Shown: positions 6,434 through 40,838 of the stretch, one piece after another | Numbering within the stretch: position 1 is the first letter of the stretch | How the letters are laid out: each line of letters opens with the position of its first letter | From: an uncultured delta proteobacterium | Lineage (GTDB): Bacteria; Myxococcota_A; UBA9160; SZUA-336 | Assembly (NCBI GenBank): GCA_963704165.1 | Contig: CAVPHD010000004.1 | Span: 1 to 64,000 of the forward strand | DNA length: 64,000 nucleotides | Direction of reading: 5' to 3' | Position numbers and translations under genes: made by a program | Notes under the pieces: generated by a model | Told to the model about the DNA's origin: nothing | The model's input: only the letters and a program-made list of their open reading frames with translations | The model's database searches: none

Positions 6434-7806
<1,373 letters not shown>

Positions 7807-10473: not shown

Positions 10474-11157
10474 ATGAAGTTCTTCCGGGATCGACTGCGT
10501 GCGTGCGTGCTCGTGCTCCTGATCGCCTGCGCGGCGACGGTCGCGCGCGCCGAAGAGGCGCCGGCGGTCGGCCTCGACTGGGAGGTTCACGAGGATCCCG
10601 CAGGGCCGCTCGTCTCGTGGCTGCGTGGTGTGCGCGACGGCGTTCTCGGTCTTCTCGACGACGTGACCGACGCGCAGCTCGGGGTCTTCTCCGAGCTTGC
10701 CATCGACAGCGGCGCGCTGCTCGAGCTCGGCTCCGACTGCGTCGGGCTCGTGGACGACAATCCGTTCTCGCAGCACCTGCTCAAGGGAATCGCGAGCAAG
10801 TCGCTCGCGAAGACCGCCTGGCTCTTCCACCTGGCCGGATCCGAGGCCGTGCTCGGCAGCCACGGGCTCGAGACCGAGAGCTGGATCGCGTCGAGCTTCG
10901 AAGAGCTGAACCCGCTTCTCGATCCCGACGAGGCACCCGCGCGCCTGCCGCTCGACCCGCTCGACTTCGTCGGCGAGGGCTGGATTCACGGCGAGGTCTA
11001 CACGGTTCATCTGCCCGGGTCGATCCTGCTCGCGACCGCGGCCGCGGATCTCGTCGTCCGGCCGATCGGGAATCTCGTTCGCATCGTCGGCTTTCACGGC
11101 ACGGCGGAAAGCATCGAGGCCGCGGGTAACGGACTGGTGCGCCGGACCGTGCGCTGA
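10474..11157 (+). CDS. Secreted or membrane-associated hypothetical protein
   Basis: GGAGG RBS; signal peptide ending ARA; coupled to the MMPL gene. Confidence 0.65.
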   Translation: MKFFRDRLRACVLVLLIACAATVARAEEAPAVGLDWEVHEDPAGPLVSWLRGVRDGVLGLLDDVTDAQLGVFSELAIDSGALLELGSDCVGLVDDNPFSQHLLKGIASKSLAKTAWLFHLAGSEAVLGSHGLETESWIASSFEELNPLLDPDEAPARLPLDPLDFVGEGWIHGEVYTVHLPGSILLATAAADLVVRPIGNLVRIVGFHGTAESIEAAGNGLVRRTVR

Positions 11158-20178: not shown

Positions 20179-20813
20179 CGCTTCGGCGCGTGCCTCGCTT
20201 TGGCCGGACCACGCGCTGGTTCCACTGGACCTTCGCGCTCTCGTTTCTCGGCCTCGCGTTCAGCGGTGGCCTGCTGCTCGTTCGCGCGGAGCTCGGCATC
20301 GACGCCGCGAACATCGCGTCGCTGATCGACGCCCACAAGATCATCGCGGTCGTCTTTCTCACCGCGCCGTGGTTGATCGGGCTGTCCGGTGATCGAAGCG
20401 CGTGGCTCCGCGACCTGTCGGAGACGGCGCGGCTCCGACGAGACGATCTGGTCTGGCTCGTCCGACAGCCGCTCGCGATGCTCGGCAAGGCGGAGCTTCC
20501 GCCCCAGGACAAGCTCAACGCCGGTCAGAAGCTGAACGCTCTCGCGGTCGCCGCGATCTCGGGCGCGATGGTCGTCACCGGGCTTCACATGTGGCAGGAG
20601 CCGGGGTCGTTTCTCGCGTTGGTCGTCCACGTGATCGGCTTTCTCGCCTGGATTCCCGCCTTCTGTGTCCACCTGTTCATGGCGTTGATCAACCCGAGCA
20701 CACGTCCGGCTCTGCCCGCGATGATTCGGGGCGACGTCGATCGTGACTGGGCCGCGCACCACCACGCGCGCTGGCTCGAGTCGGTCGAGCAGGAAGAGCG
20801 GGGGCCGAGGTGA
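20175..20813 (+). CDS. Membrane cytochrome b (FdnI-like)
   Basis: RWFHW, DKLNAGQKL, heme-ligand His residues in TMs, W..HHH..W tail. Confidence 0.85.
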   Translation: MTLRRVPRFGRTTRWFHWTFALSFLGLAFSGGLLLVRAELGIDAANIASLIDAHKIIAVVFLTAPWLIGLSGDRSAWLRDLSETARLRRDDLVWLVRQPLAMLGKAELPPQDKLNAGQKLNALAVAAISGAMVVTGLHMWQEPGSFLALVVHVIGFLAWIPAFCVHLFMALINPSTRPALPAMIRGDVDRDWAAHHHARWLESVEQEERGPR

Positions 20814-22219
20814 GACTCCGTCTCGTCCTGCTCGGCGTGATCGTGCTCGGGCCCGCGATCTTCGCGCTCCTGCTGCTGCGTTCGGGTGTGCGAAGCGATG
20901 CCGCGGCGGTCGAGCCGAAGCCACGCGCGGAGGCATCCGAACCGGGAATCGTCGCGACGGTCGATCGATGGCTCGGTGTCGCACTCGACCCCGGACCGCT
21001 CGCGAAGGCGCACGCGTCGCTCGTCGGTGTCGGAAGCTGTCTCGACTGCCACGGAAGCGCGAGCCAGGTGATCGACGCGCGTTGCATCGCCTGCCACGAG
21101 GAGATCGGAGTTCGGGCGCAGCGGAAGATCGGCTGGCACGGGACGTTCGCCGAGCCGTGCCACAGCTGTCACGCGGAACACCGCGGCGAGGACGCCGAGC
21201 TGATCGTGCTCGACCGCGACGCGTTCCAGCACGACCTCTCGCGTTTTCCGCTTCGCGGCGGTCACGTCGGCGCGAAGTGCGAGGACTGCCATCTTTCGAT
21301 TCCCCTCACCGGCTCCGAGGCCGAGGTCTTCCACTTCCAGGGGATACCGTCCGCCTCCTGCACGGGATGTCACGTCGATCCGCACGCGGGCGGAAGACGC
21401 ACGGACGAGAGCCTCGGCGCGATCCGACAGATCGCTCTAGACGAGCCCGACCCCCCGCCCGCGAAGCGCTCCGCCGAGCATCCGATCGCGGGCCGCGACT
21501 GCGCGAGCTGCCATCCGGAGTCTGGATGGCGCGCTGCACAGCTTCGGCGTCGGGGCTTCGATCACGAAGCGGACACGCTCTACGCGCTTCGAGGTGCACA
21601 TGCTTCGGTCAGCTGTCAGAGCTGCCATACCGAGAAGCAGCGGAAGCTCGAGCAGGAGTCGGGCGAGGCGCCGGGACGTGCCGCAGACGCCGACTGCGCG
21701 ACCTGCCACGAGGATCCGCACGAGGGTGAAATGCGCTCAGCGAACGGCTGCCGGTCCTGTCATTCCGAAGCCGGGTGGCGGAAGGGGTTCGACCACGACA
21801 GAGATACGCGCTTTCCGCTCGACGATCTGCACGCGCGCGTGGACTGCGCTGCTTGTCACCCGGACCAGCGCTTTCGAGCCCTGGGTCGGGAGTGCAGGGA
21901 CTGCCACGAAGATGCCGATCAGCTCCTCGTGGGTCGGTTCGCGGACGCGCACTTCGATCCGGACGTGCACGCGGAAGGCGTCCTCTGCACGGACTGTCAC
22001 GGTCCGACTCGCGCCTCGAACCGACCCGCCTCGCTGGCGAAGCGCTGCGCGGACTGCCACACGCCGGAGTTCGCGGAGCTGCTCGCGACCTGGAGCTCGG
22101 AGCTCGACGCGCTCGCCCGCCGGACGGCGCTCGATCCCGCGCTGGCCGAACGCCTGCGGCGAAGTGGCGCACACAATTTTGTGTTCGCTCGATCGCGCCT
22201 GGGCGAGCGAGCTCGCTGA
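20810..22219 (+). CDS. Membrane-anchored multiheme cytochrome c, 13 CxxCH
   Basis: N-terminal TM; 13 CxxCH counted; repeated F.H...F/YxL...H...CxxCH units. Confidence 0.9.
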   Translation: MRLRLVLLGVIVLGPAIFALLLLRSGVRSDAAAVEPKPRAEASEPGIVATVDRWLGVALDPGPLAKAHASLVGVGSCLDCHGSASQVIDARCIACHEEIGVRAQRKIGWHGTFAEPCHSCHAEHRGEDAELIVLDRDAFQHDLSRFPLRGGHVGAKCEDCHLSIPLTGSEAEVFHFQGIPSASCTGCHVDPHAGGRRTDESLGAIRQIALDEPDPPPAKRSAEHPIAGRDCASCHPESGWRAAQLRRRGFDHEADTLYALRGAHASVSCQSCHTEKQRKLEQESGEAPGRAADADCATCHEDPHEGEMRSANGCRSCHSEAGWRKGFDHDRDTRFPLDDLHARVDCAACHPDQRFRALGRECRDCHEDADQLLVGRFADAHFDPDVHAEGVLCTDCHGPTRASNRPASLAKRCADCHTPEFAELLATWSSELDALARRTALDPALAERLRRSGAHNFVFARSRLGERAR

Positions 22220-23352: not shown

Positions 23353-25662
23353 ATGCAGCCCGACCCGATGCGCGATCCCGTGTGTGGCATGACCGCGCGC
23401 GTGGACACCCCCAACTCGCATACGCACGAAGGTGTCACGTACCGTTTCTGTTCGGCGCGTTGCCTCGCGAAGTTCCGAGAGGATCCGTCGCGCTACCTCG
23501 ATCCGGGAAAGGCGGAACCGCTCGCCCCGACGTCGCCCTCGACGCGCTGGACGTGCCCGATGCACCCCGAGATCGTTCGCGACGAGCCGGGCCCGTGCCC
23601 GATCTGCGGCATGGCGCTCGAACCGATCGGGATCTCGGCCGACGACGACGAACCCCGAGCTCGACGACATGACGCGCCGTTTCTGGATCAGCCTCGCGCT
23701 CACGGTCCCGGTCTTCGCCGTGGCGATGGGCGAGATGCTCCCGGCCTTCCACGACTTCGCGTCCGCTTCCGGCCACGCGCTCGCGTACTTCCAGCTCGCG
23801 CTCGGCACGCCGGTCGTGCTCTGGGGCGGCTGGCCGTTCTTCGCCCGCGGCTGCACGTCGCTCCGGACGCGACACCTCAACATGTTCACGCTGATCGCGA
23901 TCGGGACCGGCGCGGCGTGGGCGTACAGCGTGGTGGCGACGCTGGCGCCCGGGGTCTTTCCGGAATCGTTTCGCGGCATGGGCGGATGCGGTCGCCGTCT
24001 ACTTCGAGGCCGCGGCCGTGATCGTGACGCTCGTGCTGCTCGGACAGGTGCTCGAGCTGCGCGCGCGGAGCCAGACCGGCGCAGCCATTCGGGCGCTGCT
24101 CGGCCTCGCGCCCAAGACGGCGCGCCGTCTCGCGGACGACGGACGCGAAGAGGACGTCCCGCTCGAGTCGATGCGCAGGTCGGCGACCGCCTGCGCGTCC
24201 GACCGGGCGAGAAGGTCCCCGTCGACGGCGTCGTGCTCGAGGGCCAGAGCGCGGTCGACGAGTCGATGCTCACCGGCGAGCCGATCCCGGTGGCGAAGGC
24301 GTCGGGCGACCGCGTGACCGGCGCGACGGTGAACGGCACCGGCGCGCTCGTGATGCGCGCCGAGCGCGTCGGCGCGGAGACGCTGCTCGCGCAGATCGTG
24401 CAGATGGTGGCCGACGCGCAGCGCAGCCGCGCGCCGATCCAGCGGCTCGCGGACGTCGTCGCGGGCTACTTCGTGCCCGCGGTGATCGCCGTCGCCGCGC
24501 TGACGTTCGCGCTCTGGGCGTACCTCGGGCCCGGAGCCGCGCATGGCGTACGCGCTGATCAACGCCGTCGCGGTGCTGATCATCGCCTGTCCGTGCGCGC
24601 TCGGTCTCGCGACGCCGATGTCGATCATGGTCGCGACCGGGAAGGCGGCGACGGTGGGCGTGCTGTTCCGGAACGCCGAGGCGATCGAGCTCCTGCGCGA
24701 CGTCGACACGATCGTCGTCGACAAGACGGGGACGCTGACCGAGGGCAAGCCGAGGCTCGTGCGCGTCGCGGCGGCGCCGGGTTCGAGCGAGGACGAGGTG
24801 CTCCGGCTCGCGGCGACGCTCGAGCGCGCGAGCGAGCATCCGCTGGCCGCGGCGATCGTCGCGCGGCGCCGAAGACAAGCAGCTCGAGCTCGCGGACGCG
24901 AGCGAGTTCGAGTCGCGCACCGGGCGCGGCGTGGTCGGGCAGATCGACGGGACGCGCGCGTCGCGATCGGCAACGCGAAGCTGCTCGATGAGCTCGGCGT
25001 CGAGCGTCGGCACGCTCGCGAGCGATCGCGGACGAGATGCGCGCCGAGGCACAGACCGTGATGTTCGTCGCCGTGGACGCGAAGCTCGCGGGTCTCGTCG
25101 GCGTCGCCGACCCGATCAAGAGCTCGACGCCCGACGCCATCCGCCGTCTGCACGAGGAGGGGCTGCGCGTCGTCATGCTGACCGGCGACAACCGCACGAC
25201 CGCCGAGGCCGTCGCTGCGAAGCTCGGCCTCGACGAGGTCCTCGCCGACGTCCTGCCGGACCAGAAGGCCGAGGTCGTGAAGCGCTTCAGGCGGAGGGTC
25301 GCGTCGTCGCGATGGCGGGCGACGGCGTGAACGACGCACCGGCGCTGGCGCAGGCGCACGTCGGCATCGCGATGGGCACCGGCACCGACGTCGCGATGGA
25401 GAGCGCGGGCGTCACGCTCGTGCGCGGCGATCTGCGCGGCATCGTGCGCGCGCTGCAGCTCAGCCGCGCGACGATGCGGAACATCCGCCAGAACCTGTTC
25501 TTCGCGTTCGTCTACAACGCGCTCGGCGTGCCGATCGCGGCAGGCATCCTCTTCCTGCCGTTCGGTCTGCTGCTCAGTCCGATGATCGCGGCGGCGGCGA
25601 TGAGCCTGAGCTCGGTCTCGGTGATCGCGAACGCGCTCCGCCTGCGACGCCTTTCGGTGTGA
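23353..25662 (+). CDS. copA: Cu(I)-translocating P1B-type ATPase with YHS and heavy-metal-binding domains; several frameshifts
   Basis: DPVCGM, TCPMHP...[43 protein letters not shown] spread over shifting frames. Confidence 0.85.
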
Positions 25663-25672
25663 GCGGCGACGA

Positions 25673-27244
25673 TCAGATCGCGCGCTCGCGTCCGGCCCAG
25701 TACGGATCGCGCAGCTTGCGCTTGTAGAGCTTGCCGTTCGGGTCGCGCGGCATCTCGTCGATGAAGTCGATCGATCTTCGGCGTCTTGAACTTCGCGAGC
25801 TTGTCCTTGCAGAACTCGAGGATCTCGGCTGTCGAGCGCCGTCGACCGGCGTCGACGCCGACGGCCGGCTCGATCACGGCCTTCACCTCTTCGCCCCAGT
25901 CCTCGTTCGGGATGCCGAAGACCGCCGCGTCGGCGACCTTCGGGTGGGTGAGCAGCACGTTCTCGATCTCGGCCGGGTAGATGTTCGCGCCGCCCGAGAT
26001 GATCATGTCGATCTTGCGGTCGCACAGGAACAGGTAGCCCTCGTCGTTCAGGTAGCCGACGTCGCCGACGGTGAAGTAGTTGCCGATCCGGTTCTTCCGC
26101 GTCTTCTCCGTCGTCCTTGTGGTACTCGAAGTCCGCCTGTGCCGAGCAGCATGTACACGGTGCCCTGCTCGCCGGCGGCAAGCTCCTTGCTCGTCGTCGT
26201 CGAAGATCTTGATCTCGGCGCTGGGCCAGGCGCGGCCGACGGTGCCCGGATACTTCCGCCATTCCTGCGGCGTGACGAGCGTGCCGCCGCCCTCGGTCGC
26301 GGCGTAGTACTCGTAGATCGAGTCGCCCCACCAGTCGAGCATGCGGCGCTTCACGTCGGGCGGGCAGGGCGCCGCCGCGTGCACCATCGTGCGCGTCGAG
26401 CGAGCAGTCGTACTTCGCGCGCACGTCCGTCGGGCAGCGCGAGCATGCGGTGGAACTGCGTCGGCACCATGTGGCTCGTGGTGCACGCGGTGCTGCGTCG
26501 ATCAGGCGCAGGCATGTCCTCGGGCGTCCACTTCTCCATCAACACCACCGGGTGTCCGAAGTGCATCGACGACGACGCGAAGATCAGCACCGCCGTGTGG
26601 TAGAGCGGCGAGCCGACGATGTGGACGTTCTCGTCCTCGGGCTTGATGCCGAACATCGACGAGGAAGCCGGTGAAGAGCGTCGCGATCGTGTCGGGATCG
26701 AGCTGGCGGCAGCGGGCGCCGCACGCCCTTGGGCTTGCCGGTCGTGCCGGAGGTGTAGTTCATGACCGCACCCGCGGCGCGCTCGTCGGGCAGCGTCGTC
26801 GGGCTGGCCTGCGATGGAGCTCCTCGAACGGCTGGAAGCCGGCGAATCGATCCGATCGCGAAACGCGCCCGACGCGGGGAAGCGCGATCTCGTCGGCCGC
26901 GGCACGGCAGACGTCGGCGATCCGCTCCGACGCGACGAACGCCTTCGCCTCGCTGTCCGCCAGGATGTACGCGATCTCGGCGGGCGCGAGATGCCAGTTG
27001 ATCGGCACCAGGTACCAGCCCGACTGCGCACAGGCGAGATTCAGCGCGACGAACTCGGCGCAGTTCGGCAGCGCGACCGCGACCGCGTCGCCGTGCCGCA
27101 GTCCCGAGCGCGCGCAGACCGTGCGCGATCCGGTTCTGCAGCGCGAAGAGTTCGCCGCGCGTGTACGAGCGCCCGTCGGGCGCGACCAGCGCGAGCCGCG
27201 ACGGATCGCGCTCGCGCGTAGCTCCAGAATCCGTGTTCGGCCAT
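25673..27244 (-). CDS. Acyl-CoA synthetase (FadD family); several frameshifts
   Basis: Start MAEHGFW; YTSGTTGKPK, SPLYH, YYAATEGG, TVGDVGY, DRKIDMIISGGANIYPAEIE in fragments; ends DPYWAGRERAI. Confidence 0.8.
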
Positions 27245-27258
27245 GGCTTCGGTGTCTC

Positions 27259-28417
27259 CTAAGGCTTGTGGTCGGCGACGATGTAGGTGCTGAAGTACTG
27301 CGAGCCGCCGCCGTAGGCGTGGCCGAGCGCCTTGTGCACGCCGTCGACCTGGTGCTCGCCCGCCTGGCCGCGGACCTGCATCGCGGCCTCGGCGAAGCGG
27401 ATCAGTCCCGAGGCGCCGATCGGGTTCGACGAGAGCACGCCCCCCGACATGTTCACGGGCAGATCGCCGTCGAGCGCGGTCGCGCCCTCGTAGGTCATCT
27501 TCCAGCCCTGACCTTCCTCGGCAGAAGCCCATCGACTCCATCCACATCGGCTCGAACCAGCTGAACGGCACGTAGATCTCCGCGCAGTCGATTTCCTTGC
27601 GCGGGTTCGTGATGCCGGCCTTCGCGTACAGGTCCTTCGCGTTCATGCGCGCGGCGAGCGGGTTCACCTGATCGCGGCCGGCGAACATCGTCGGCTCGCA
27701 GCGCATCGCCGTGGCGTGGACCCAGGCGGGCTTGCCCGGCGACTTCGAAGCCGCACGCTCGCTCGCGAAGATCATCGCGCAGGCTCCGTCCGAAGACGGA
27801 CAGGTCTCGAGGTAGCGGATCGGGTCCCAGAGCATCGGCGAGTTCATCACCTGCTCGAACGTGATGCCGGGGATCTGCAGGTGCGCGTACGGATTCTTGA
27901 GCGCGTTCTGCCGGTCCTTCACCGCCACGCGGATGCCCGTGTCGTCGGGCGCGCCGGAGCGCCGGATGTAGGCGCGGATCAGCGGCGCGAAGTAGCCGCC
28001 CGCGCCGGCGACGACCGCGACGCTGAACGGCGGCGCGACCGTCAGCGCCCACATGGCGTTCGACTCCGACTGCTTCTCGAACGCCACGCACAGGACGCGC
28101 TCGAAGACGCCCGACTCGACCAGCGACGACGCGACGATTCCCGTCGAGCCGCCGACGCTGCCCGCGGTGTGCACGCGGATCATCGGCTTGCCGGCGCCGC
28201 CGAGCGCGTCGGCGAGGAAGAGCTCGGGCATCATCACGCCCTCGAACATGTCCGGCGCCTTTCCGATCACGAGCGCGTCGATGTCGCCGAAGGACAGGTC
28301 CGCGTCCTCGAGCGCGCGCAGCGCCGCTTCGCGCACGAGCCCGGGCATCGAGACGTCGATGCGCTTGGCGTCGTACTTCGTCTGTCCGATTCCGATGACT
28401 GCGCTCCGCTCGGCCAT
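27259..28417 (-). CDS. ltp3: Thiolase-like Ltp3 (sterol side-chain aldolase type); frameshift near 27520
   Basis: GKAPDMFEG, RVHTAGSVGGST, ETCPSSDGA, AEIYVPFSWFE, SNPIGASG, HAYGG. Confidence 0.85.
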
Positions 28418-29466
28418 CAGTCCCCCTCCAGAACGCAGACCAGGTTCTGCTGCAGGCACGGACCCTGCGTCGCGTGCGCGACCGCGCGATCGCCGCGCCG
28501 GGACGCGATCCGAAGCGCGGCCTCGCCGATCCGGATCAGACCCGCCGCCATCAGCGGATGCGATGCGAGCGCGCCGCCGGACGGATTGATCGCGACGTCA
28601 TCGCCGAGCCCGAGCGCGGCGCGCAGGATCAGCTCCTGGTGCGAGTACGGTGCGTGCAGCTCGGCGAAATCGATCTTGCCCTGGTGCACGCCGGCCTTCT
28701 TCGCCGCGATCTCCGTCGACGCGGAGCGCGTCAGGTCTCGCATTCCGAGCCCGAGCGGCTCGATCCGGTGATCGAAGCCGCGAATCCAGACCGGACGCGC
28801 GCAGAGCTTGCGAGCCCGGTCGCCGGCGACGACGACCATCGCGGATGCGCCGTCGGTGATCGGAGGCAGGTCGTGTGCGCGAAGCGGCGAGCGGACGTAC
28901 GGCTCCGCGAGCAGTTTCTCGATGTCCACCGCGCCGCTGACGACGGCGTGTGGATTCGCGACCGCGTTGCTCCGGCTCCGCGCGACGACTTCCGCCAGGC
29001 ATCGTTCGGACCGCCCCGTGGCTTCGAGGAACTGGCGCGCCTGGATCGCGGCGAGGCTGTCCGCGTCGGGCCAGAGCGGCGTCATCGTGTAGGGGTCGAG
29101 CTGCAGCGCCAGCACTTCGGACAGATCGCCCGGCGAGGACTTGCCGAACGAGTAGACGAGCGCCGAGTCGACGTCGCCGGTCTGGATCTTGATCCACGCC
29201 TCGTACAGCGCCCACGCGCCGTCCATCTCGACGTGGGATTCCTTGATCGGCGGCCACGCACCGACGGCATCGAGCGCGCCGACGAACGAGAAGCACTGTC
29301 CCGCCAGGTAGTCGCTCGAGCCCGAGCAGGTGAAGCCGATCTCCTGGCGCGGCAGTTTCGAGTTGCGCACGGCCTCCTGTACGACCGGCATCAGGATCTC
29401 GACCTCGTTGCGCGTATCGCGTGCGGCGGCCGACTGCGCGAACGAGACGATCGCCACCTCGCGCAT
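28417..29466 (-). CDS. ltp4: Thiolase-like Ltp4
   Basis: FTCSGSSDYLAG, AWPPIKESHVEMDGAWALYEAW, GPCLQQNLV. Confidence 0.85.
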   Translation of the reverse strand: MREVAIVSFAQSAAARDTRNEVEILMPVVQEAVRNSKLPRQEIGFTCSGSSDYLAGQCFSFVGALDAVGAWPPIKESHVEMDGAWALYEAWIKIQTGDVDSALVYSFGKSSPGDLSEVLALQLDPYTMTPLWPDADSLAAIQARQFLEATGRSERCLAEVVARSRSNAVANPHAVVSGAVDIEKLLAEPYVRSPLRAHDLPPITDGASAMVVVAGDRARKLCARPVWIRGFDHRIEPLGLGMRDLTRSASTEIAAKKAGVHQGKIDFAELHAPYSHQELILRAALGLGDDVAINPSGGALASHPLMAAGLIRIGEAALRIASRRGDRAVAHATQGPCLQQNLVCVLEGD

Positions 29467-29951
29467 CACAGGTGCTCCTTGTACGTATCGAACTCGGCAT
29501 CGGGCTCGGCGATCGGCTTGAAGTAGCGGATGCTCGACATCGTCGGCCCGAGCTCCTCTCGGGGAACCCAGACGGCCTGGACCCGCATGCCCATGCGCAC
29601 GTCCTCGAGCGCGCACTCCTGGAGCACGTGCATGAAGGGGATGTCCGCGCCGTCGAGAAGCACCGCGGCGCAGGTGAAGGGCGGCGCGAACGACAGGTTC
29701 TCGGATGGAACGCGCACGATGCAGAACGTCGTCACCGTGCCTTTGTCCGAGACCTGCACCTCTTCCTCGGTCCGGACGGCGCAGCGCGGGCAGGCGCCCC
29801 GCGACGGCACGTACACGCGTCTGCACTCGATGCAGCGCTGCCCGAGGATCCGGCCCTGCGCGATTCCGCGCAGGAAACGGCTCTGCGCGCGGCCCGTGAT
29901 GTAGTCGTAGTCGAGCGCGACCGGGCTCGTGATGCTCTTCACCAGCTCCAT
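29466..29951 (-). CDS. DUF35 zinc-ribbon/OB-fold protein
   Basis: CIEC...CPRC, GTVTTF, LLDGAD, VRMGMRV. Confidence 0.85.
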   Translation of the reverse strand: MELVKSITSPVALDYDYITGRAQSRFLRGIAQGRILGQRCIECRRVYVPSRGACPRCAVRTEEEVQVSDKGTVTTFCIVRVPSENLSFAPPFTCAAVLLDGADIPFMHVLQECALEDVRMGMRVQAVWVPREELGPTMSSIRYFKPIAEPDAEFDTYKEHL

Positions 29952-29953: not shown

Positions 29954-30415
29954 TCAGACCTCCGGCTCGAAGCAGGCGATGTCACCGATCTCGCCCTTCG
30001 TCTCTTCGCGCCAGCGCGGGCGCACGCGCATTCCCGTGCGCATCCGCGATTCGTCGCGCGCGTCGACCGCGTGCAGGAGCGGCGTGTCCGCGCCGTCGAG
30101 CAGGATCAACGCGAACGCGAACGGGTGCGGCAGCGGCTGCTTCGCGCGCGGCTTGGAAACCCAGGTCCAGCCCTTCACCGCGCCGCCCGGTCCCACCGGG
30201 ACGAAGTCCTCCGCGGTGGCCTCGCCGGTGTCGGGGTCGTACTCCGCCGGGGGCACCAGTACGCGTCCCTTGCGCGTGCGGATGCCTTCGATCCGCCGCT
30301 CGCGCAGGCCCGCGAAGAATCGGCCGAGCACCGGGCCGACCGAACGGCGGTAGGCGTACTCCAGATGGTGTACCGCCGTCAGCGGCTCGTCGGGGCTCTT
30401 CGAATCGGGTGCCAT
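29954..30415 (-). CDS. DUF35 OB-fold protein lacking the Zn ligands
   Basis: RSVGPVLGRF, VPPAEYDP, LLDGADTPLLH, MRTGMRV. Confidence 0.85.
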   Translation of the reverse strand: MAPDSKSPDEPLTAVHHLEYAYRRSVGPVLGRFFAGLRERRIEGIRTRKGRVLVPPAEYDPDTGEATAEDFVPVGPGGAVKGWTWVSKPRAKQPLPHPFAFALILLDGADTPLLHAVDARDESRMRTGMRVRPRWREETKGEIGDIACFEPEV

Positions 30416-30428: not shown

Positions 30429-31106
30429 TCATCCGCCCGCGGCGACGCGCGGGCCCTCGAGCATCAGCCGCGCGGCCGCACTCAGCTTGCGAAGGATCGA
30501 GTCGGGATCGGGCTCGTTGCCGATCACCCAGCCGATCAGCCCGGAGAACCAGATCGCGATCAGCGCGTCGGCGACCTCGCGTTCGGTCTCGCGCGGCGTG
30601 AACTCGCCGATCGCCGTCGACGGATCCACCGGCTCGTCCCGCAGGGACGCGACGACCGCGCGCGCGATCCGGCGGTTGCTGCTCGCGATCTGCACGGCGG
30701 TCTGTCGGTCTCCGCTCGTCATCGCGCGAACCAGGGCGCTGCCGAGCTGCGGATTCTGGAGCAGTCCGCGCGTGGCGCGGCGGAAGAACTCGATCACGCG
30801 TTCCAGTGGAGTGTCGCCACGCACGGGACGTTCGAAGAGATCCGTCTCGAGGCGGTCGAGCCCCTCGTCGAACGCGAACAGGAGGATGTCTTCCTTGCCG
30901 CGGAAGTACTTGTAGAGCGTGCCGAGAGCCACGTCGGAGCGGCCGGCCACGTCGCGCAGCCGCACGGCCTCGAAGCCGCCCTGTTCCGCCAGCTCGACGG
31001 CCGTATCGACGATCCGGCGCATGCGGCGGAGCTGGCTCGCGACCAGCTTCGCGACCGGGGGCTCGATCGCTTCGAACCCGGGCGCTTCGGGGAGAAGCCG
31101 GCTCAT
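30429..31106 (-). CDS. kstR: TetR-family regulator, KstR-like
   Basis: Q..R..RI.D....A..GGFEAV..R.VA.RSDVALGTLYKYF..K HTH; W...L..W C-terminus; sterol gene context. Confidence 0.7.
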   Translation of the reverse strand: MSRLLPEAPGFEAIEPPVAKLVASQLRRMRRIVDTAVELAEQGGFEAVRLRDVAGRSDVALGTLYKYFRGKEDILLFAFDEGLDRLETDLFERPVRGDTPLERVIEFFRRATRGLLQNPQLGSALVRAMTSGDRQTAVQIASSNRRIARAVVASLRDEPVDPSTAIGEFTPRETEREVADALIAIWFSGLIGWVIGNEPDPDSILRKLSAAARLMLEGPRVAAGG

Positions 31107-31114
31107 CGGCGAAT

Positions 31115-31128
31115 TAGAACACGTTCCA
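31115..31128. promoter_or_regulatory. KstR operator (TAGAACACGTTCCA)
   Basis: Exact match to TnnAACnnGTTnnA, in the divergent gap next to the kstR-like start. Confidence 0.8.
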
Positions 31129-31215
31129 GTGAACGGTGTCCACGCGCAGCCGTCGCCGCGTTGTCTGTAAGATGGCACGAGAGGGCGAGTGACTTCGTCC
31201 CTCGAAAGGACGCCC

Positions 31216-32223
31216 ATGAAGCTCGGACTCCAGCTCGGCTACTGGCAGGCCCAGCCGCCGACGAATCACGTCGCGCTCGCACAGGAAGCCGAGCGGCTCG
31301 GCTATGACTCCGTCTGGACCGCGGAAGCCTGGGGCTCGGACGCGTTCACGCCGCTGGCGTGGATCGGGGCGCAGACTTCGAAGATCAAGCTCGCCACCGG
31401 AATCGTGCAGATCTCGGCGCGCACGCCCGCGTCCACCGCGATGCACGCGCTCACGCTCGATCATCTCTCGCACGGTCGCCTGATTCTCGGGCTCGGCGTT
31501 TCCGGTCCGCAGGTCGTCGAGGGCTGGTACGGTCAGCCCTTCGACAAGCCGCTCGCGCGAACCCGCGAGTACGTCTCGATCATCCGCAAGATCCTGCGCC
31601 GAGAGGCGCCGGTTTCGAACGACGGACCGCACTACCCGCTTCCGTATCAGGGCGCGGGCGCGTGGGGGCTGGGAAAGCCGTTGCGTTCGATCGTGCACCC
31701 GCTTCGCGCGGATCTGCCCATCTACCTCGGCGCGGAGGGACCGAAGAACGTCGCGCTCGCGGCCGAGATCTGCGACGGCTGGACGCCGCTCTACTACTCG
31801 CCGTTCCGTCCGGAGGTCTACGCGGAATCCCTCGCCGGCGCCAAGCCGGGTTTCCAGATCGCGCAGGGTCTCGCGGTGAACGTCACGAGCGACATCGCGG
31901 CGGGTCTGGCGCCCGTGAAGGCGATGCTCGGCTTCTACATCGGCGGGATGGGCGCGAAGCAGCGCAACTTCCACAAGGAGCTGATGAGCCGGATGGGCTT
32001 CGAAGCCGAGGCGACGAAGATCCAGGACCTGTTTCTCGAGGGGAAGCGCGCGGAGGCGATCGCTTCGGTGCCGGACCAGTTCGCCGACGAGGTCTCTCTC
32101 GTCGGGCCGATCGAGCGCATCCGCGACCGGCTGCAGGCCTGGAAGAGGACGCCCGTCACCACGCTTCTCGTCGGGGCGCACGACCCGGCGGTGATGCGCA
32201 CGATGGCCGAGCTCGTGCTGTAG
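31216..32223 (+). CDS. LLM-class F420-dependent oxidoreductase (Rv3520c-like)
   Basis: AEAWGSDA, GLGVSGPQVVEGWYG, GAEGPKN, YIGGMG; AAAGGA RBS. Confidence 0.9.
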   Translation: MKLGLQLGYWQAQPPTNHVALAQEAERLGYDSVWTAEAWGSDAFTPLAWIGAQTSKIKLATGIVQISARTPASTAMHALTLDHLSHGRLILGLGVSGPQVVEGWYGQPFDKPLARTREYVSIIRKILRREAPVSNDGPHYPLPYQGAGAWGLGKPLRSIVHPLRADLPIYLGAEGPKNVALAAEICDGWTPLYYSPFRPEVYAESLAGAKPGFQIAQGLAVNVTSDIAAGLAPVKAMLGFYIGGMGAKQRNFHKELMSRMGFEAEATKIQDLFLEGKRAEAIASVPDQFADEVSLVGPIERIRDRLQAWKRTPVTTLLVGAHDPAVMRTMAELVL

Positions 32224-32230: not shown

Positions 32231-32938
32231 GTGGAGAAACTCGTCTATCTGCTATGGAAGCGCGACTCCGACGGGGTCGAGCGTTTCCGCGAGCAGCTGC
32301 TCGAGACCGCGGCCCCGAAGCTTCTCTCGGACGGCGCGCTCGCGCTCGTCGCGAACGTCTCCGATCTGCACGGGCAGCTCGGTCCGCGCAACCCGCTGGT
32401 GGTCGGTGACGGCCGCGAGATCTCGGCGAGCGTCTCCGTCTGGCTCGATTCGCTGGACGCGCGGCTCGCGCTCGAAGCGACGCTCTCCGGTGTCGCATCG
32501 CGCGTTCACGGCTACTCGGTCACGGAGTCGGTGCCGTTGCGCTGCCCCGATCGCGACTGGGCCGACGGCGAGCGCAGCCCCGGCGTCACCCTCTGGACCG
32601 CGTTCCCCAAGCCCGAGCGGCTCAGCGACGCGGAGTTCTTCGCGCACTGGTACGGCTCGCACACGCCGCTCTCGTTCGAGATCCATCCGCTCTGGCAGTA
32701 CGTGCGGAACGCCGTCGTGCGGCCGCTCACGCCCGGCTCGAAGCCGTTCCGCGCGATCGTAGAGGAACGCTTCCGGTCGCTCGAAGAGATCCTCGACCTG
32801 AAGCACTTCTTCGGGGGCGACCTCGCGAACATCAAGCGGGTGACGGACGACCTGGCGGCCTTCACCGAGATGGCGACGATGAACACGACACCGATGAGCG
32901 AGTTCATCGTGAAGAGCGAGCCGTGGATTTCGATCTGA
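32231..32938 (+). CDS. EthD-domain protein
   Basis: FFAHWYGSHTPL, YVRNAV, AIVEE. Confidence 0.75.
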   Translation: MEKLVYLLWKRDSDGVERFREQLLETAAPKLLSDGALALVANVSDLHGQLGPRNPLVVGDGREISASVSVWLDSLDARLALEATLSGVASRVHGYSVTESVPLRCPDRDWADGERSPGVTLWTAFPKPERLSDAEFFAHWYGSHTPLSFEIHPLWQYVRNAVVRPLTPGSKPFRAIVEERFRSLEEILDLKHFFGGDLANIKRVTDDLAAFTEMATMNTTPMSEFIVKSEPWISI

Positions 32939-34061: not shown

Positions 34062-35074
34062 GTCGGATCGATGTGCGCGACCTCGCGCCGGCGGATCTCG
34101 AGTCCGCTTCGCGGCTGCTCTCGACGCGTCTCTCGCACGCGCACGCGCTTTCGGAGAATCCCGGCTTCGCGGCGCGCGACACGGCGGAGTGTCGGAAGTC
34201 GCTCGAGAAGCTCGCTTCGGGAAAGTACGCGCGCGGCGCGATCGCAACGGCGGCGGGCGAGCCGGTCGGCTTCCTGTTCGCGGAGCGGAACCTGACCGCT
34301 CCGGACTCGCCGCAGGCCTACTTCAGCCCGGCGTTCTCGGTCGCGAGTCCGCTCCAGGGCCACGCCGTGGCCCCGGACCGGAACCCCGGCGCGATCTACC
34401 GCGCGCTCTACGCGCACCTCGCCGGCGACCTCGTGCGGGACGGATTCCTCGATTTCGGCGTCGGCGTGCTCGCTTCCGAGCACGAGGCCCACGACGCGTG
34501 GGTGAATCTGGGCTTCGGACGTCACTTCACGCTGGCCTTGCGAGGCGTCGAGCCCCTCGCCGAGCCGTCGCGCGGCGACGTCGAGATCCGCGAGGCGACG
34601 GAGAAGGAGCTTCCCGACGTCTTCGCGTTGCTGGCCGAGCAGCGGGCATTCCACGCCCGTGCTCCGATGTTCCTGCCCGACCTGCGCATCCTCCATGGCC
34701 CGCAGGAGGAGATGGCGCGCTCGATGTTCGGGCAGCCGCGCTGCCCGATCTTCATCGCCTGGCGCGATCGCGAAGCGCTCGGCATGCAGCTCTTCGCACC
34801 GCGCGCGTTCGTTTCCTGGCCGGTGCGCGACGAGGGGACGGTCTACCTCTTCCACGGCGTGGTTCGCGAGCGGGAGCGCGGCTCGGGCGTCGGCGCTTCG
34901 CTGCTCGAGCACTCGCTGGCCTGGATGCGCCGTGAAGGCGTGACCCGCTGCGGGTTACACTACCTGTCCGCGAACCCGTCCGGCTCGGTCTTCTGGACGA
35001 GACACGGATTCCGGCCGGCCGAGCACTACCTTCACCGCGCGGTCGATGCACGCATGGCATGGAGTGCCCGGTGA
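34058..35074 (+). CDS. GNAT N-acetyltransferase (tandem domains)
   Basis: ERGSGVG acetyl-CoA motif, N.....FW...GF; second W...GF in the N-terminal half. Confidence 0.8.
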   Translation: MSRIDVRDLAPADLESASRLLSTRLSHAHALSENPGFAARDTAECRKSLEKLASGKYARGAIATAAGEPVGFLFAERNLTAPDSPQAYFSPAFSVASPLQGHAVAPDRNPGAIYRALYAHLAGDLVRDGFLDFGVGVLASEHEAHDAWVNLGFGRHFTLALRGVEPLAEPSRGDVEIREATEKELPDVFALLAEQRAFHARAPMFLPDLRILHGPQEEMARSMFGQPRCPIFIAWRDREALGMQLFAPRAFVSWPVRDEGTVYLFHGVVRERERGSGVGASLLEHSLAWMRREGVTRCGLHYLSANPSGSVFWTRHGFRPAEHYLHRAVDARMAWSAR

Positions 35075-38000
35075 ACGAACGCGCGACCCACCGCTTCGGC
35101 AAGTTCGTCGTGCGTCAGCGCCACGCGATCGCTCTGCTCCTGGCGCTCGCGACGCTCTTCTTCCTGTACCCGACCGTGAACGCGGTCTCGACCGGGCTCG
35201 GGCGAAAGCTTCCCGGGCCGACCGTTCGGATCGGCAGCGACGCGCGCGCCCAGCTCCCCGATCACGCCTTCATTCACGCGCAGAACAAGTTCGCGGGCGA
35301 GTTCGGCAACTCGACGCTCGTCGCGATCTCGCTCGTGGTCGAAGACGGCACGATCTGGACGCCCGAGGCGCTCGCGAAGATCGACGCGATCACGAAGTCG
35401 CTCGATGGCTGGGACTACGACGCCCGCACGGACGAGCGCAAGCACGCGCGCGCGGAGCTCGAGCAGGCGGGCCGGCTCGGACGCGAAGAGATCCGCGCCG
35501 AGCTCGATCGCCGCTTCCCGCCGTACCCGGTGAACCACGACCACGTCCGATCGATCACGCACATGTCGGCGCGCGTCGTGCAGATGGAGAAGGACGGCAC
35601 GATCACGGCGGAGCTTCTGATGGAGGATCCGCCCGAGACGCAGGAGGATGCGGACGAGACCCGCCGGCGCGCGCTCGAGCTGATGCCGGACCAGATGCTC
35701 CGGATGCTCGTGTCCCGCGACGAGAAGGCGGCGCTGATCACCGCCGGCTTCGTCACGCACAGGCTGAACGGGCTCGAGGTGTATCGGGCGGTCTTCGATC
35801 ACCTGCGGGCGCTGCAGGAGCGCGAGCAGGACGATCGGCACCGTGTCTACGTGACCGGCGCGCCGCTCGCGGTCGGCTATCTGATCTCGCACGCCTGGCA
35901 GCTGGTGCTCTCGGTCGTGGCCGCGGTGCTGGCGATCTTCGCTCTGCTCTGGGCGTACTTCCGCCGCTGGCACGGCGTGCTGATCCCGATGATCGCGGCG
36001 GCGGTGACGGTGATCTGGGGCACGGGCTTCACCGGCTGGGCGGGAATCGCATTCGACCCGCTCGTGATCGTGATTCCGATGCTGATCACCGCGCGCGCCG
36101 TCTCGCACACGGTGCAGATGGCCGAGCGGTTCTTCGAGGACTACGAGCGGCTCTATCCACTCTACCAGGACCGCGAGCGCGCGAAGCTCGAGGCCGCGGC
36201 CGTCGCGATGGGCGAGCTGGTCGTGCCGGGAACGCTCGGCATCCTGACCGACGTCGCGGGTCTGCTCGTGATCCTCGTGACCACGATCCCGCAGATGCGC
36301 GACCTCGGCATCTTCGGCGCGTTCTGGGTCGCGTCGATCGTCGCCACCGTCGAGATCCTGCACCCGATTCTGATCTGCTTCCTGCCCGCACCGAAGGAGT
36401 TCCGGCACTACACGCCCGCGTTGATGACGCGCTACGTCGGCTGGGTCGCCGATTTCGTCACGCATCCGCGCGGGCGTTGGATCGTCGCGGGCACGTTCGC
36501 CTTGGTCTTCGTCGTCTCGGGCTGGGCGACGCTGCGCTGGTCCACGATCGGCGAGGCGCGTCCGGGCATTCCGCTCTTCTGGCCGGATCATCCGTTCAAC
36601 GTCGCGACGGGGGTGATCGGCGAGAAGTTCGGCGGCGCCGACGCGCTGGTGATCTACGCCGAGGGCGACCGCGACGAATCGGCGGGGGAGTCCGAGGTGC
36701 TGAACAAGATGCAGGACCTCGAGCGCGAGCTGCGCGCGAAGACCGGCGCGGTCGCCGTGATCTCACCGGTTCCGCTCGTGCGCGCGGCGAACCGCTCGTT
36801 CCGCTACGGCGAGCCGAAGCAGGAGATCATTCCCGAGAACGCACGCGCGCTGCTGATCTTCCTGCGCTTCAACAGCCCACCCGGTGCGCTCTCGTCGATC
36901 GTCACGGCCAACGGCCGCGCCTCGACGCTGACGGCGATCTATCCCGATCACAAGGGCGAGACGATTCGACGCGCGGTGGAGGTATCCGAGGACTTCATCG
37001 CGAAGAACCCGATGGGTGCGATCTCGATCCGGCTCGCCGAGAACCACGCCGGTCCGGACGACGTCTGGTGGAAGCCCGAGCGGGTGAAGGATTTCGTCTA
37101 CTACATGCTCGGCCCGCTCCTCCCCGCGCGCGCACACACGCTGCGCGTGCTGCGGAAGGAAGACGGCGAGTACGTGCCCTTCGAGGTCAAGACCGTCGCG
37201 CGCGATGGCGCACCCGAGTGGCTCGAGGAGTTTCGCGCCGCGGCGCACGCGAAGTACGCGAAGGAGGCGAGCTCACGCCGCCCGGGCCGCATGTTCAACT
37301 GGCCCGCTGAGCTCGAGGACTGGCAGGCCTCCGACGTCGATCAGTGGTTCGAGAACGAGAAGCTGCGGATCCGCGCGGTGGCCGTCCACACGAAGGATCT
37401 TCTGGTCCAGGATCGGAAGTCGCAGGGATCCGCGCCGACCTACCAGCCGACGCAGCAGTGGACGCGCGGCGTGCAGCTGGTCATGGCCGGCGGTCCGCTC
37501 GGCATGCTCGCCGCCGTGAACGACGAGGTCGAGCGCGGCCACCTCGCGAACATCTCGCTGATCCTGTTCGTGATCTTCGTGCTGCACTCCGTCACCTATC
37601 GCTCGACGATCTCGGGCGGGATCATCTTCCTGCAGCTCGCCACGGCGACGCTGCTCTCGCTCGCGTTCATGGCCGTGCGCGGCGTGGGTCTGAACATCAA
37701 CACGTTGCCGGTGCAGGCGGTCGGCGTCGGAATCGGCGTCGACTACGCGATCTACATCGTCGATCGCATCCGTCAGGAGCTCGCGGTTCGGGGGAACCTG
37801 GAGGAAGCGATCCGCGCATCGGTGCGGACGACGGGCATGGCGGTGACGTTCACCGGCACCACGGTGGTGGGCGGGATCGGCTTCTGGGTCCTCTCGGACC
37901 TGCGGTTCCAGGCCGAGATGGCGCAGCTTCTGATCGTGCTGATGGCGATCAACATGCTGGCCGCGGTCACGTTGGTGCCGGCGCTGTACGCGATTCTGCG

Positions 38001-38079
38001 TCCTGGCGTTCCGCGTTCGCGAGGGAATCGGGAATCGACATCTGGAGCGGCCGAGTCGGCCGTGGAGGAGGCGGCATGA
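35071..38079 (+). CDS. MMPL/HAE3 RND transporter, enlarged (about 1002 aa)
   Basis: ARAVSHTVQ, GILTD.AG, GIGVDYAIY, FQAEM. Confidence 0.9.
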   Translation: MNERATHRFGKFVVRQRHAIALLLALATLFFLYPTVNAVSTGLGRKLPGPTVRIGSDARAQLPDHAFIHAQNKFAGEFGNSTLVAISLVVEDGTIWTPEALAKIDAITKSLDGWDYDARTDERKHARAELEQAGRLGREEIRAELDRRFPPYPVNHDHVRSITHMSARVVQMEKDGTITAELLMEDPPETQEDADETRRRALELMPDQMLRMLVSRDEKAALITAGFVTHRLNGLEVYRAVFDHLRALQEREQDDRHRVYVTGAPLAVGYLISHAWQLVLSVVAAVLAIFALLWAYFRRWHGVLIPMIAAAVTVIWGTGFTGWAGIAFDPLVIVIPMLITARAVSHTVQMAERFFEDYERLYPLYQDRERAKLEAAAVAMGELVVPGTLGILTDVAGLLVILVTTIPQMRDLGIFGAFWVASIVATVEILHPILICFLPAPKEFRHYTPALMTRYVGWVADFVTHPRGRWIVAGTFALVFVVSGWATLRWSTIGEARPGIPLFWPDHPFNVATGVIGEKFGGADALVIYAEGDRDESAGESEVLNKMQDLERELRAKTGAVAVISPVPLVRAANRSFRYGEPKQEIIPENARALLIFLRFNSPPGALSSIVTANGRASTLTAIYPDHKGETIRRAVEVSEDFIAKNPMGAISIRLAENHAGPDDVWWKPERVKDFVYYMLGPLLPARAHTLRVLRKEDGEYVPFEVKTVARDGAPEWLEEFRAAAHAKYAKEASSRRPGRMFNWPAELEDWQASDVDQWFENEKLRIRAVAVHTKDLLVQDRKSQGSAPTYQPTQQWTRGVQLVMAGGPLGMLAAVNDEVERGHLANISLILFVIFVLHSVTYRSTISGGIIFLQLATATLLSLAFMAVRGVGLNINTLPVQAVGVGIGVDYAIYIVDRIRQELAVRGNLEEAIRASVRTTGMAVTFTGTTVVGGIGFWVLSDLRFQAEMAQLLIVLMAINMLAAVTLVPALYAILRPGVPRSRGNRESTSGAAESAVEEAA

Positions 38080-38903: not shown

Positions 38904-40838
38904 TCAGAACAGCGCGAGCTGATCGGTTTCGGGGCGGCGGAAGGCGGCGGTGTTGAGCGTCGGGCCCGATGCTTCCATTCCGCTTCGACGGCGCGCGAGC
39001 GCGACGAGCTCTGCGATCTGCCCGGCCCAGATCCCGGTTCCGCGGTGGCGGAGGCCGAAGCGCGACTCGTTCGACTTCCCGCCGCGCAGATCCGCGAGCC
39101 GGTGCAGGATCTTCTCGCGCCGGTCCGGTTCGTGATCTTCGAGCCACTGCGCGAACAGGTCCTTCACCGCCCAGGGCAGACGCAGGAGCTGCCAGCCCGC
39201 CCACGCTGCGCCCGACGCGCCGGCCGCGGCGACGAGCGCGGGGATCTCGTGCTCGGTCAGCCCCGGGACGATCGGTGCCAGGTTCACGCCGACGGGAATT
39301 CCCGCGCGGGCCAGCTGCTCGATCGCCCAGAGCCGCGCGCGAGGTTGCGCGGCGCGCGGCTCCATCCGGCGCGCGAGCTCGGGGTCGAGCGTGGTGAGCG
39401 AGATCGTCACCGACACCGCATCGTGTCGGGCGAGCTCCTGCAGCACGTCGCCGTCCCGCACGATCAGCCGGCTCTTGGTGATGATCGCGCAGGGATTTCG
39501 GAAGTCCGCGAGCACTTCGAGCGATCGCCGCGTGATCCGCAGCTTCCGCTCGATCGGCTGGTAGGCGTCGGTCACGCCCGAGATGCCGATCGGCTGCGGC
39601 TTCCAGCTCTTCGCGGACAGCGCTCCGCGCAGAAGCTCGGGCAGTTCGTGCTTCACCAGGATTCGCGTCTCGAAGTCGAGGCCGGCCGAGTAGCCGAGGT
39701 ATTCGTGGGTCGGTCTCGCGTAGCAGTTGTGCGTCGCAAGGCCCGCGGCGAAGAACGTGCCGGTGGAGGTCTGGATGTCGACCACGTCGAGATCGCCTTC
39801 GCGCACGATCGCGTGAATTCGCTCCGGTGAGGTCGGTGGCACGTGCCCGAAGAGCGACTCGCGATGCCGCGCCGCGGCGGGCGCGACCGTCGAGACGAAG
39901 CGCAGTCGCTCGGCGCCGGAACCCACGCGGCCGGGATCGAAGCCGAGCGACCGCGCATAGCCGTGCGCGCGAGCGCTCGCTTCTCCGCGTCCGCTCGCGT
40001 CGAGGTGCCCCGCGAGGAATCCGCGGCGGTAGCCGCGGCTCGAGCGCTCGACGTCGATCAGCTTGAAGAGGATCGCGAGGCTCGCGAGCGAGCGGACCTC
40101 GAGCGTCGAAGCCGGAAGAACGGAAACGGAGACGCCGAATCCCGCGAGGCAGGCGACGAGTCGCGCGCGCGTTTCGCGGTCGGGAAGCGCGATGCGGTAA
40201 TACGCCTTCCTCGGATCGAAGCGATGGCCCCGGCCGAGCGAGAGCCCGGCGACGTAACCGGCTCGGTAGTCGTCGTCGATCGGCTCCGCGATCACGACCG
40301 GCAGGTGCCGCAACGTCGCTCCGACCTCGAGCTGATCCGTGCGCGACCAGCGGAATCCCCGAGCGCGCAGCCAGCGGTGCTCGGCCGTGGTCACGACCTC
40401 CGCGTGCTCGGTCACGAGCCGAACGCCGGGCTTGCGCGCGGACCAGACGGCCAGAACGGAAGACGGCCGCAGCTTCCATCTCGAGCCCGGACGCGGAACC
40501 TCGTCGAAGCCCGCGAGCACGTCCCCGCGCTTCACCTCCCCGAGCGGTCGCCACGCGAGATCGGCGTAGAGCACGGGCGTGTCGGGCGCGAGGCAGTAGA
40601 TGCAGCCGTGCTCGCAGCCGCGGTACGGATTGATCCCCACCTCGAAGCCGACATCCGGACTCTGGTTTCGCGACAGCGCGCTGCGCGAAGCGTCCGCGAT
40701 GAAGCGGGTGCGCGGATCGGGGGTCTCGTCGTCCGCAAAACCGCTCGCGGGATCGGGCTCGAAGCGCGCGGTCTCGAACCGGTTCGGGAGCGTCTGATTC
40801 GTGCCCCGTCCGCGGATCGGCTCCCGAAACTGCGCCAC
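38904..40838 (-). CDS. PA0069/Rv2578c-family radical SAM protein (SPL-like), intein-containing
   Basis: INPYRGCEHGCIY-[intein]-CYARPTHEY, TDAYQP.E, LARRMEP, APIVPG. Confidence 0.9.
   Translation of the reverse strand: MAQFREPIRGRGTNQTLPNRFETARFEPDPASGFADDETPDPRTRFIADASRSALSRNQSPDVGFEVGINPYRGCEHGCIYCLAPDTPVLYADLAWRPLGEVKRGDVLAGFDEVPRPGSRWKLRPSSVLAVWSARKPGVRLVTEHAEVVTTAEHRWLRARGFRWSRTDQLEVGATLRHLPVVIAEPIDDDYRAGYVAGLSLGRGHRFDPRKAYYRIALPDRETRARLVACLAGFGVSVSVLPASTLEVRSLASLAILFKLIDVERSSRGYRRGFLAGHLDASGRGEASARAHGYARSLGFDPGRVGSGAERLRFVSTVAPAAARHRESLFGHVPPTSPERIHAIVREGDLDVVDIQTSTGTFFAAGLATHNCYARPTHEYLGYSAGLDFETRILVKHELPELLRGALSAKSWKPQPIGISGVTDAYQPIERKLRITRRSLEVLADFRNPCAIITKSRLIVRDGDVLQELARHDAVSVTISLTTLDPELARRMEPRAAQPRARLWAIEQLARAGIPVGVNLAPIVPGLTEHEIPALVAAAGASGAAWAGWQLLRLPWAVKDLFAQWLEDHEPDRREKILHRLADLRGGKSNESRFGLRHRGTGIWAGQIAELVALARRRSGMEASGPTLNTAAFRRPETDQLALF
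39726..40595 (-). mobile_element. Intein, 290 aa, with degenerate LAGLIDADG endonuclease remnant
   Basis: Block A CLAPDTPV, block B TAEHRW, YVAGLSLG and FLAGHLDASG, block F DIQTSTGTF, block G HN followed by Cys+1. Confidence 0.92.

Follow-up and report, generated by a model that had tools for sequence, protein, structure and literature searches.

KstR-type control has, to our knowledge, been described as actinobacterial only, and Myxococcota are better known for making sterols. The accessible part of the mycobacterial study lists Rv3520c/Rv3521, Rv3503c/Rv3504, Rv3515c/Rv3516, Rv3545c/Rv3546 and kstR as EMSA-positive KstR sites, and there the kstR site overlaps the −10 region (Kendall 2007, PMC1995591). 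The steroid regulators named for Gram-negative Proteobacteria in the available text of two papers are TesR/TeiR, RepA, HsdR (Comamonas) and EdcR (Caenibius) (PMC6678751, PMC8700777); they are set apart from the system reported here by description, since that text of the first paper mentions no KstR operator for them (PMC6678751). Steroid-degrader surveys name, in their accessible sections, only Actinobacteria and Proteobacteria (PMC4810484, PMC5790920), and CYP125 is described within Actinomycetota in those of a further paper (PMC12100521). A literature search returned no paper joining KstR with Myxococcota; supplementary MAG tables or subscription papers could mention such genes.

The locus described here lies in a window, by which we mean the whole analyzed stretch of 64,000 nucleotides, from a diderm, non-actinobacterial genome. 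We consider it probable that a Myxococcota-type KstR homolog binds a palindrome in its own promoter and represses a small sterol side-chain regulon until a sterol-derived CoA thioester releases it.

The repressor gene (30429..31106, minus strand; predicted to be leaderless and first in its operon) encodes a protein of 225 aa with a TetR_N (PF00440) and a TetR_C_20 (PF17925) domain according to Pfam. Its best PDB match is M. tuberculosis KstR (E 8e-23), its structure model (pLDDT 91) has KstR for all top 10 Foldseek matches, and the model superposes on DNA-bound KstR with a TM score of 0.92-0.93 and an rmsd of 1.6, all of which agrees with the KstR-like TetR of the original prediction. In NCBIfam, the protein reaches 110.3 bits with NF033703, the KstR equivalog (cut-off 280), and 37.5 bits with the next family; in this resource as in PDB the match is to KstR and not to KstR2, and the operator is likewise of KstR type. 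The window protein is outside the curated KstR equivalog and is a KstR-like TetR in the broad sense. NF033703 is matched by 15 of 121 Actinomycetota genomes at E<=1e-15 and three of these pass the cut-off, which is therefore narrow; the KstR of Nocardioides dubius also falls below it (271.5 bits).

Fold, TetR_C_20 domain, recognition helix and operator core are those of KstR (Rv3574 / MSMEG_6042; PDB 3MNL, 5CW8, 5FMP, 5UA2). In a comparison of 28 actinobacterial rows with 16 and 46 rows from two Myxococcota groups (clades A and B, see below), recognition helix 3, VA[LV]GT[LV]Y[KR][YR]F (V59-F68), and R51 are common to all three, with variation at K/R66 and Y/R67 within the helix. What differs from mycobacterial KstR, apart from the diderm Myxococcota host and the separate sister clade, is an overall identity of 26-29% and, just before helix 2, R/L in place of Q49/M50 of the actinobacterial proteins. 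In the ligand domain, tryptophan W186 is invariant. The residue six positions before it, variable even among actinobacteria, is Asp in the window protein and arginine in mycobacterial KstR, where we take it to be a ligand contact; by this comparison, the ligand domain has diverged from that of mycobacterial KstR. Three cluster representatives (P0153, 381 aa; P0229; P0236) are longer KstR-like proteins, possibly with a second domain fused.

A KstR tree of 47 rows picked from 99 dereplicated ones (IQ-TREE, LG+G4), from which partial sequences, outgroups and long branches were excluded, puts 17 actinobacterial proteins on one side of a split with 100/100 support and 30 others on the opposite side. 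The non-actinobacterial side consists of clade A, with the window protein (99/97), and clade B, from the same class and from Polyangia (97/87), including a few records under other NCBI labels, e.g., Spirochaetaceae. Close homologs that bear names are labelled Myxococcota, and a homolog from a genome titled UBA9160 belongs to the same clade as the window protein, so the class of the host is probably UBA9160. The split persists in a larger tree with 131 of 150 cluster representatives added, in which 110 rows fall with the Myxococcota proteins and 68 with the actinobacterial ones, counts biased by the query. The KstR proteins of Nocardioides, Acidimicrobiia and other non-mycolate Actinomycetota are closer in sequence (34% identity for N. 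dubius, which also has the same motif), but still fall on the actinobacterial side of the split, and N. dubius has canonical HsaC, HsaA and KstD. The original prediction had looked for a place in the KstR clade; the protein is not inside the actinobacterial one but in its sister group. In these trees, the window protein is part of an old radiation within Myxococcota, and the sister group of that radiation comprises all sampled actinobacterial KstR. Rooting with four distant TetRs from the same genome left the root as a three-way split on long branches, and therefore we claim no donor; Myxococcota KstR may stem from ancient transfer or from shared ancestry.

Recent import deserves separate discussion, as the original prediction had allowed for either a transferred or an ancient regulon. 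High G+C, the actinobacteria-like order with an Rv3520c-like gene divergent from DUF35-ltp4-ltp3, and a foreign tail elsewhere in the bin (on contig C5) could all suggest that the locus was recently acquired from an actinobacterium or sits on a chimeric contig. However, 42 of the 55 window genes of at least 100 aa match a congener, G010, at >=55% identity with the order kept, and homologs of the repressor (E<1e-30) occur in 47 of 60 sampled relatives from the class. An AU test with the window protein and one congener held together with seven Actinomycetes proteins, a group named after the tree had been seen, rejected this nesting (p-AU 0.0003). The intact RpoB of the host clusters with the class relatives and neighbors those of Polyangiaceae- and Kofleriaceae-labelled genomes, whereas Nocardioides stands apart. 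The AU test and the 100/100 split refute recent transfer from Actinomycetes, and we regard a recent import or a chimeric contig as extremely improbable; the circuit itself is old in Myxococcota.

The genome comes from a diderm member of the Myxococcota. Its phylum, its LpxC and TonB genes and its collinearity with the congener show that the contig is not chimeric. Diderm markers in the window include a TonB-dependent receptor (56038-58764) and TonB_C (53575-54387), and there is a sigma54 activator (6430-7806), with RpoN and LpxC elsewhere in the genome; of the markers proposed originally, only the porin has weak backing (22.9 bits versus a cut-off of 28.7). The TonB-receptor cluster of G010 has no match in the host genome, though the host has a TonB receptor of its own. 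The foreign tail (C5:300000-308904), where G+C drops from 0.68 to 0.60-0.64, carries an additional rpoB, frameshifted and about 50-57% identical to that of the host genome. A plasmid search yielded only five records, all actinobacterial, and no sequencing run contained more than a 0.10 share of the locus.

The candidate operator, TAGAACACGTTCCA at 31115-31128, is an imperfect palindrome that fits the consensus TnnAACnnGTTnnA and lies 8 bp from the ATG of the TetR gene (31106, minus strand), exactly as originally predicted. It is the sole match in the window, where 0.06 are expected and six of 100 shuffles contain one. Across the host genome, this loose consensus has 25 matches and no enrichment over similar palindromes (12, 21, 25, 47 and 77 for five of them; ten other controls gave 0-8 and a shorter one gave 22). 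The palindrome match alone is therefore weak, and support comes from conservation.

As with mycobacterial and rhodococcal KstR, the site lies on the repressor's own −10 region, with the promoter being a predicted one here. The putative −10 box TCTAAT (31113..31118, minus strand) occupies positions −12 to −7 from the ATG, is overlapped by the operator and is non-canonical at −11, where the usual A is missing; we predict that it belongs to a leaderless promoter. A peak of TAnnnT at −12 from start codons is a mark of leaderless promoters, and among the 3167 genes of the host genome it reaches 115 over a background of 12; at about tenfold enrichment, such promoters look widespread in this genome. 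The likely −35 box, TGGACA (31137..31142, minus strand), stands 18 bp from the −10 box, and an alignment of ten loci is conserved only in the operator, the AAT after it and this TGGACA/TAGACA block. For the divergent gene, a possible −10 box, TAAGAT (31168..31173, plus strand), common to three congeners, lies 40 bp from the operator. A strict sigma70 scan found no promoter at the locus and missed the predicted −10 box, and an Rfam search of the window had no matches. The only terminator-like match of the scan is the operator region itself and was discarded. A longer ORF, to 31217, was rejected as the repressor start, because orthologs start 7-13 bp after their operator.

The operator consensus is found upstream in 26 of the 29 best orthologous loci from other genomes; of the remaining three, one is truncated at a contig end, another carries a variant with two mismatches, and the third lacks a site. 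Operator and start are separated by 7-13 bp at 23 of the 25 loci for which this gap was computed. Within the class, 44 of 47 genomes with a repressor homolog contain a strict 16-mer, as do two of 13 without one, a tally in which the autoregulatory site itself accounts for many matches and related genomes are not independent. A reversed-pattern control gives two matches in 61 genomes versus about 200 real strand matches, and is fairer than a coding-DNA simulation, whose training set is biased to high GC3 and understates chance. It could be argued that the palindrome is a chance match or a mere promoter element, given the unremarkable 25 genome matches of the loose consensus and the overlap of one arm with the −10 box. 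The preservation of both arms while the flanks diverge, the reversed control and the near-absence of sites from genomes without the repressor speak strongly against this explanation, which we consider extremely improbable.

The first genes downstream of 22 non-autoregulatory sites in class relatives, assigned by N-terminal likeness, are fadE26-like in seven cases, echA19-like in four and cyp125-like in three. In a second class, represented by 151 genomes around the Kofleriaceae-labelled G063, 18 genomes have a homolog and 13 of these have 12-27 sites, while the 133 genomes without homolog have at most five. All 12 ltp4 carriers among the 151 are within these 13, with homolog and at least 12 sites; the five other homolog carriers have 0-3 sites and no ltp4. 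By these counts, the repressor, its predicted sites and sterol genes are found together in two classes of Myxococcota.

A group of Polyangiaceae-labelled genomes, G062 (L281-L315) and its relatives G466-G468 (L344-L362), has clade B KstR in three of four genomes and 10-24 strict sites (reversed control 0-2). Despite 10-24 sites, no fadE26 was found in G062, G466-G468 and G386 (Polyangiaceae-type/second-class), nor was ltp4 found in G062. In G062, 23 of 35 sites lie inside unrelated genes, including dnaN, glmM, 2-oxoacid dehydrogenase E2, UDP-glucose dehydrogenase, malate synthase and lycopene cyclase. The glmM-internal site is common to G062 and G466, and promoter sites before kstR and an acyltransferase-like gene are common to G062 and relatives. 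Possibly, KstR has been repurposed for a chromosome-wide binding role in this group.

In the window, the repressor gene heads an operon on the minus strand, as had been proposed. It continues with two ChsH2/DUF35 genes identified by domain search, for an OB-fold protein (29954..30415), presumably the first half of an Rv3521-like pair, and for a zinc-ribbon plus OB-fold protein (29466..29951). Then come genes for an Ltp4-like thiolase-fold protein (28417..29466; PRK07937, which we take to be ltp4; NF005924, 529 bits, cut-off 419), a frameshifted Ltp3-like thiolase-fold protein (27259..28420; PRK08313, which we take to be ltp3; NF006180, 510 bits over the first 301 aa) and an acyl-CoA ligase not of FadD19 type (25670..27250, ends approximate; domain search), which has several frameshifts. 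The frameshifts in the last two genes, probably long-read errors, are absent in G010, where the Ltp3-like ortholog is intact (NF006180, 665 bits, cut-off 514), as is the ligase ortholog (516 aa; best match PRK12406/FadD4, below cut-offs).

Divergent from the repressor gene are a gene for an Rv3520c-family F420-dependent LLM oxidoreductase (31216..32223, plus strand; TIGR03559, 456 bits, cut-off 335) and one for an EthD-domain protein (32231..32938, plus strand; weak Pfam EthD match, collinear in G010), which is probably co-transcribed with it. The claim of divergent sterol-catabolic operons holds for the DUF35-ltp4-ltp3 side; on the other side, it is the first gene alone that can be tied to sterol clusters. 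In contrast to mycobacteria, the Rv3520c-like gene and the DUF35-ltp4-ltp3 operon here have the repressor gene between them, at the head of the operon.

The window has several further features of note. A heavy-metal P-type ATPase gene with YHS domain and several frameshifts (23353-25662, plus strand) is inserted right after the ligase gene and absent there in G010. A cluster for multiheme cytochrome c (c554/c7) and cytochrome b561 (18358-22219, plus strand) begins with a cytochrome apparently fused to an LPG-synthase membrane domain, the two being separate in G010. A PA0069-family radical SAM gene (38904-40838, minus strand; 644 aa) has a split match and also matches the intein-containing Rv2578c model, so an intein is possible. 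Two genes encode MMPL/HAE3-type RND transporters (11157-13439 and 35059-38079, plus strand), the first with a match to a sterol-sensing domain; the matrix search described next found no operator before either.

For the host genome, we used a site matrix built from 23 sites of other genomes, with a threshold of >18 bits. The window site scores 28.3 bits, and there are seven matches in the genome, as opposed to 0, 0 and 1 in three simulated genomes. Two of them, C1:319981 and C4:111352, were rejected as targets, both being inside coding genes. The other five are intergenic: besides the window site, they comprise a pair between P450 and EchA19-like hydratase genes (C5:267332 and C5:267377), a site before a fadE26/27-like acyl-CoA dehydrogenase pair (C5:270532) and one (C5:276503) preceding a choice-of-anchor-V / LLM / CasG-like operon. 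The genome-wide scan suggested with the original prediction thus had a mixed outcome, the loose consensus not being enriched and the matrix sites preceding sterol-gene homologs. In G010, the P450 ortholog best matches CYP125 (E 2e-145 for a reconstructed ancestor, 1.5e-94 for a natural enzyme), and the acyl-CoA dehydrogenase ortholog best matches PDB 4X28 (E 6e-139), which we take to be FadE26/ChsE4. The CasG match, at 710-726 bits, is just under the cut-off of 750. Judged by such homologies, the five host promoter sites repeat Kendall's EMSA-positive intergenic set, plus the casG-like operon. As in mycobacteria and rhodococci, sites precede Rv3520c/Rv3521-, fadE26-, echA19- and cyp125-like genes and, in relatives, distantly kshA-like ones; their number, however, is five in the host versus 17 and 32 in two mycobacteria. 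Window positions 1-620 are identical to C5:299318-299937, so contig C5 probably extends into the window, which would place the entire regulon within about 65 kb. At C5:255-300 kb, 37 of 44 genes are likewise collinear with G010, where both blocks abut. The first gene after the C5:276503 operator encodes a small protein of secreted type that has a choice-of-anchor V domain; this gene and the operator are kept together in another genus (orthologs L037, L259).

A paralog of the repressor, a clade B KstR gene at C8:50258-50839 (L067), adjoins a ferredoxin gene. Its recognition helix is near-identical, so that the sites could be common to both proteins, and genomes with only the paralog's clade also carry sites. 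One could therefore suspect that the main reader of the sites is a different protein, for instance this one, with the window gene merely a target. This is improbable in our opinion: it is the window gene whose own promoter carries a site, the usual arrangement in TetR autorepression, whereas the paralog has no operator upstream and has Asp where Val stands in 94-100% of each group. In relatives, the operator lies between fadE26 and a divergent gene for a similar ferredoxin (L040, L043).

The catabolic gene content bears on what the regulon is for. The host has a FadA5-type thiolase (618 bits, cut-off 515). Its contig C11 has genes resembling the actinobacterial KstR2 regulon (C/D-ring, HIP-CoA): FadD3 (743 bits, NCBIfam cut-off 657), PRK07801 (724/591), PRK07831 (424/336) and PRK07938 (356/260), together with a CoA-transferase pair and an NMO gene, which besides fadD3 we take to be fadA6, ipdF, echA20 and ipdABC. 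KstR sites are absent from this host C/D-ring set, as are intergenic matches to the KstR2 box, which sets it apart from the KstR2 regulon. In two Polyangiaceae-labelled genomes, KstR-type sites separate echA20-like from ipdA-like genes and also precede genes resembling fadD3 and ipdF, and in Polyangia one KstR may cover the C/D-ring genes too, a task that falls to KstR2 in actinobacteria. C/D-ring genes directly follow KstR-type sites at L333, L102 and L090 (G465, G464).

The A/B-ring genes present a different picture. KshA_C has no match in the host genome, which is 84% complete, and is present in 41 of 61 class genomes. HsaC is above cut-off in none of the 61, 42 of which have no match at 1e-50, and KstD is above cut-off in none of four Myxococcota genomes tested; N. 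dubius passes both cut-offs. By homology, the host has side-chain and C/D-ring genes, and canonical A/B-ring genes such as the kstD and hsaC of mycobacteria were not found in it. In ten congeners, 25 of 43 genes for KshA_C-domain Rieske proteins have a strict site 360-422 bp upstream of the domain, hence just before the gene. The operator marks up to four such divergent, KshA-like oxygenases per genome, and beside one of them are genes for a secreted KstD-family flavoprotein and an SDR. One operator-marked Rieske protein (321 aa) matches KshA at E 3.5e-45 and is thus divergent; in G010, its gene is followed by one for a flavoprotein distantly related to KstD. The collinear part of the host lacks two G010 segments with operator-marked Rieske genes, which suggests that their loss in the host species is real. 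Stronger KshA_C matches occur in G035 (C99, L241; E 1e-71) and G042 (C39, L242; E 3e-68); one of these genes is near an extradiol dioxygenase, and a true KshA is possible.

The failure to find canonical A/B-ring genes, the ligand-domain residues that differ from KstR, the operon ligase that is not FadD19-like and the statement, in the available text of one paper, that KstR may govern lipids beyond cholesterol (PMC6678751) leave room for a real repressor-operator pair that serves another lipid (branched-chain, isoprenoid, hopanoids, other triterpenoids) or sterol side chains only, and responds to another inducer. We regard this as unlikely, though it deserves to be taken seriously. The predicted targets make up a steroid-specific set (CYP125-like, 4X28-like, EchA19, CasG-like), the host C/D-ring genes exceed their cut-offs, and in Polyangia the operator is directly before C/D-ring genes.

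Together, our data suggest the following model for the sterol regulon that we favor. A dimer of KstR type would bind the palindrome on its own predicted promoter and occlude the −10 box of the leaderless transcript's promoter, so that the operon represses itself. The four other promoter sites, before the cyp125-, echA19-, fadE26- and casG-like genes, would be repressed likewise. The divergent Rv3520c-like gene may also be controlled, though its likely promoter is 40 bp from the operator. By analogy with complexes of KstR with CoA thioesters, a steroid-CoA intermediate produced by the CYP125-like P450 and a CoA ligase would be the inducer; sterols are presumably the substrate.

The mechanism itself, TetR autorepression, is already familiar. 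What the comparison of genomes adds is that a KstR-type control circuit likely also runs in a second bacterial phylum, with a DNA-binding code that appears unchanged across phyla at <30% protein identity. More tentatively, and with considerable doubt, the Myxococcota circuit could be ancient, independently diversified and as deep as the actinobacterial one, with operators that point to an undescribed attack on the A/B rings and a single-regulator state in Polyangia that is possibly ancestral. The repressor is open to in vitro tests without culturing the host, and the operator may serve as a genome-mining tag for uncharacterized Rieske oxygenases and further enzymes suitable for steroid assays; interest would be greater if the operator-marked Rieske enzymes proved to be a new ring-opening route. 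The conserved presence of repressor, operator and targets in two classes of Myxococcota makes this a likely third phylum among sterol users.
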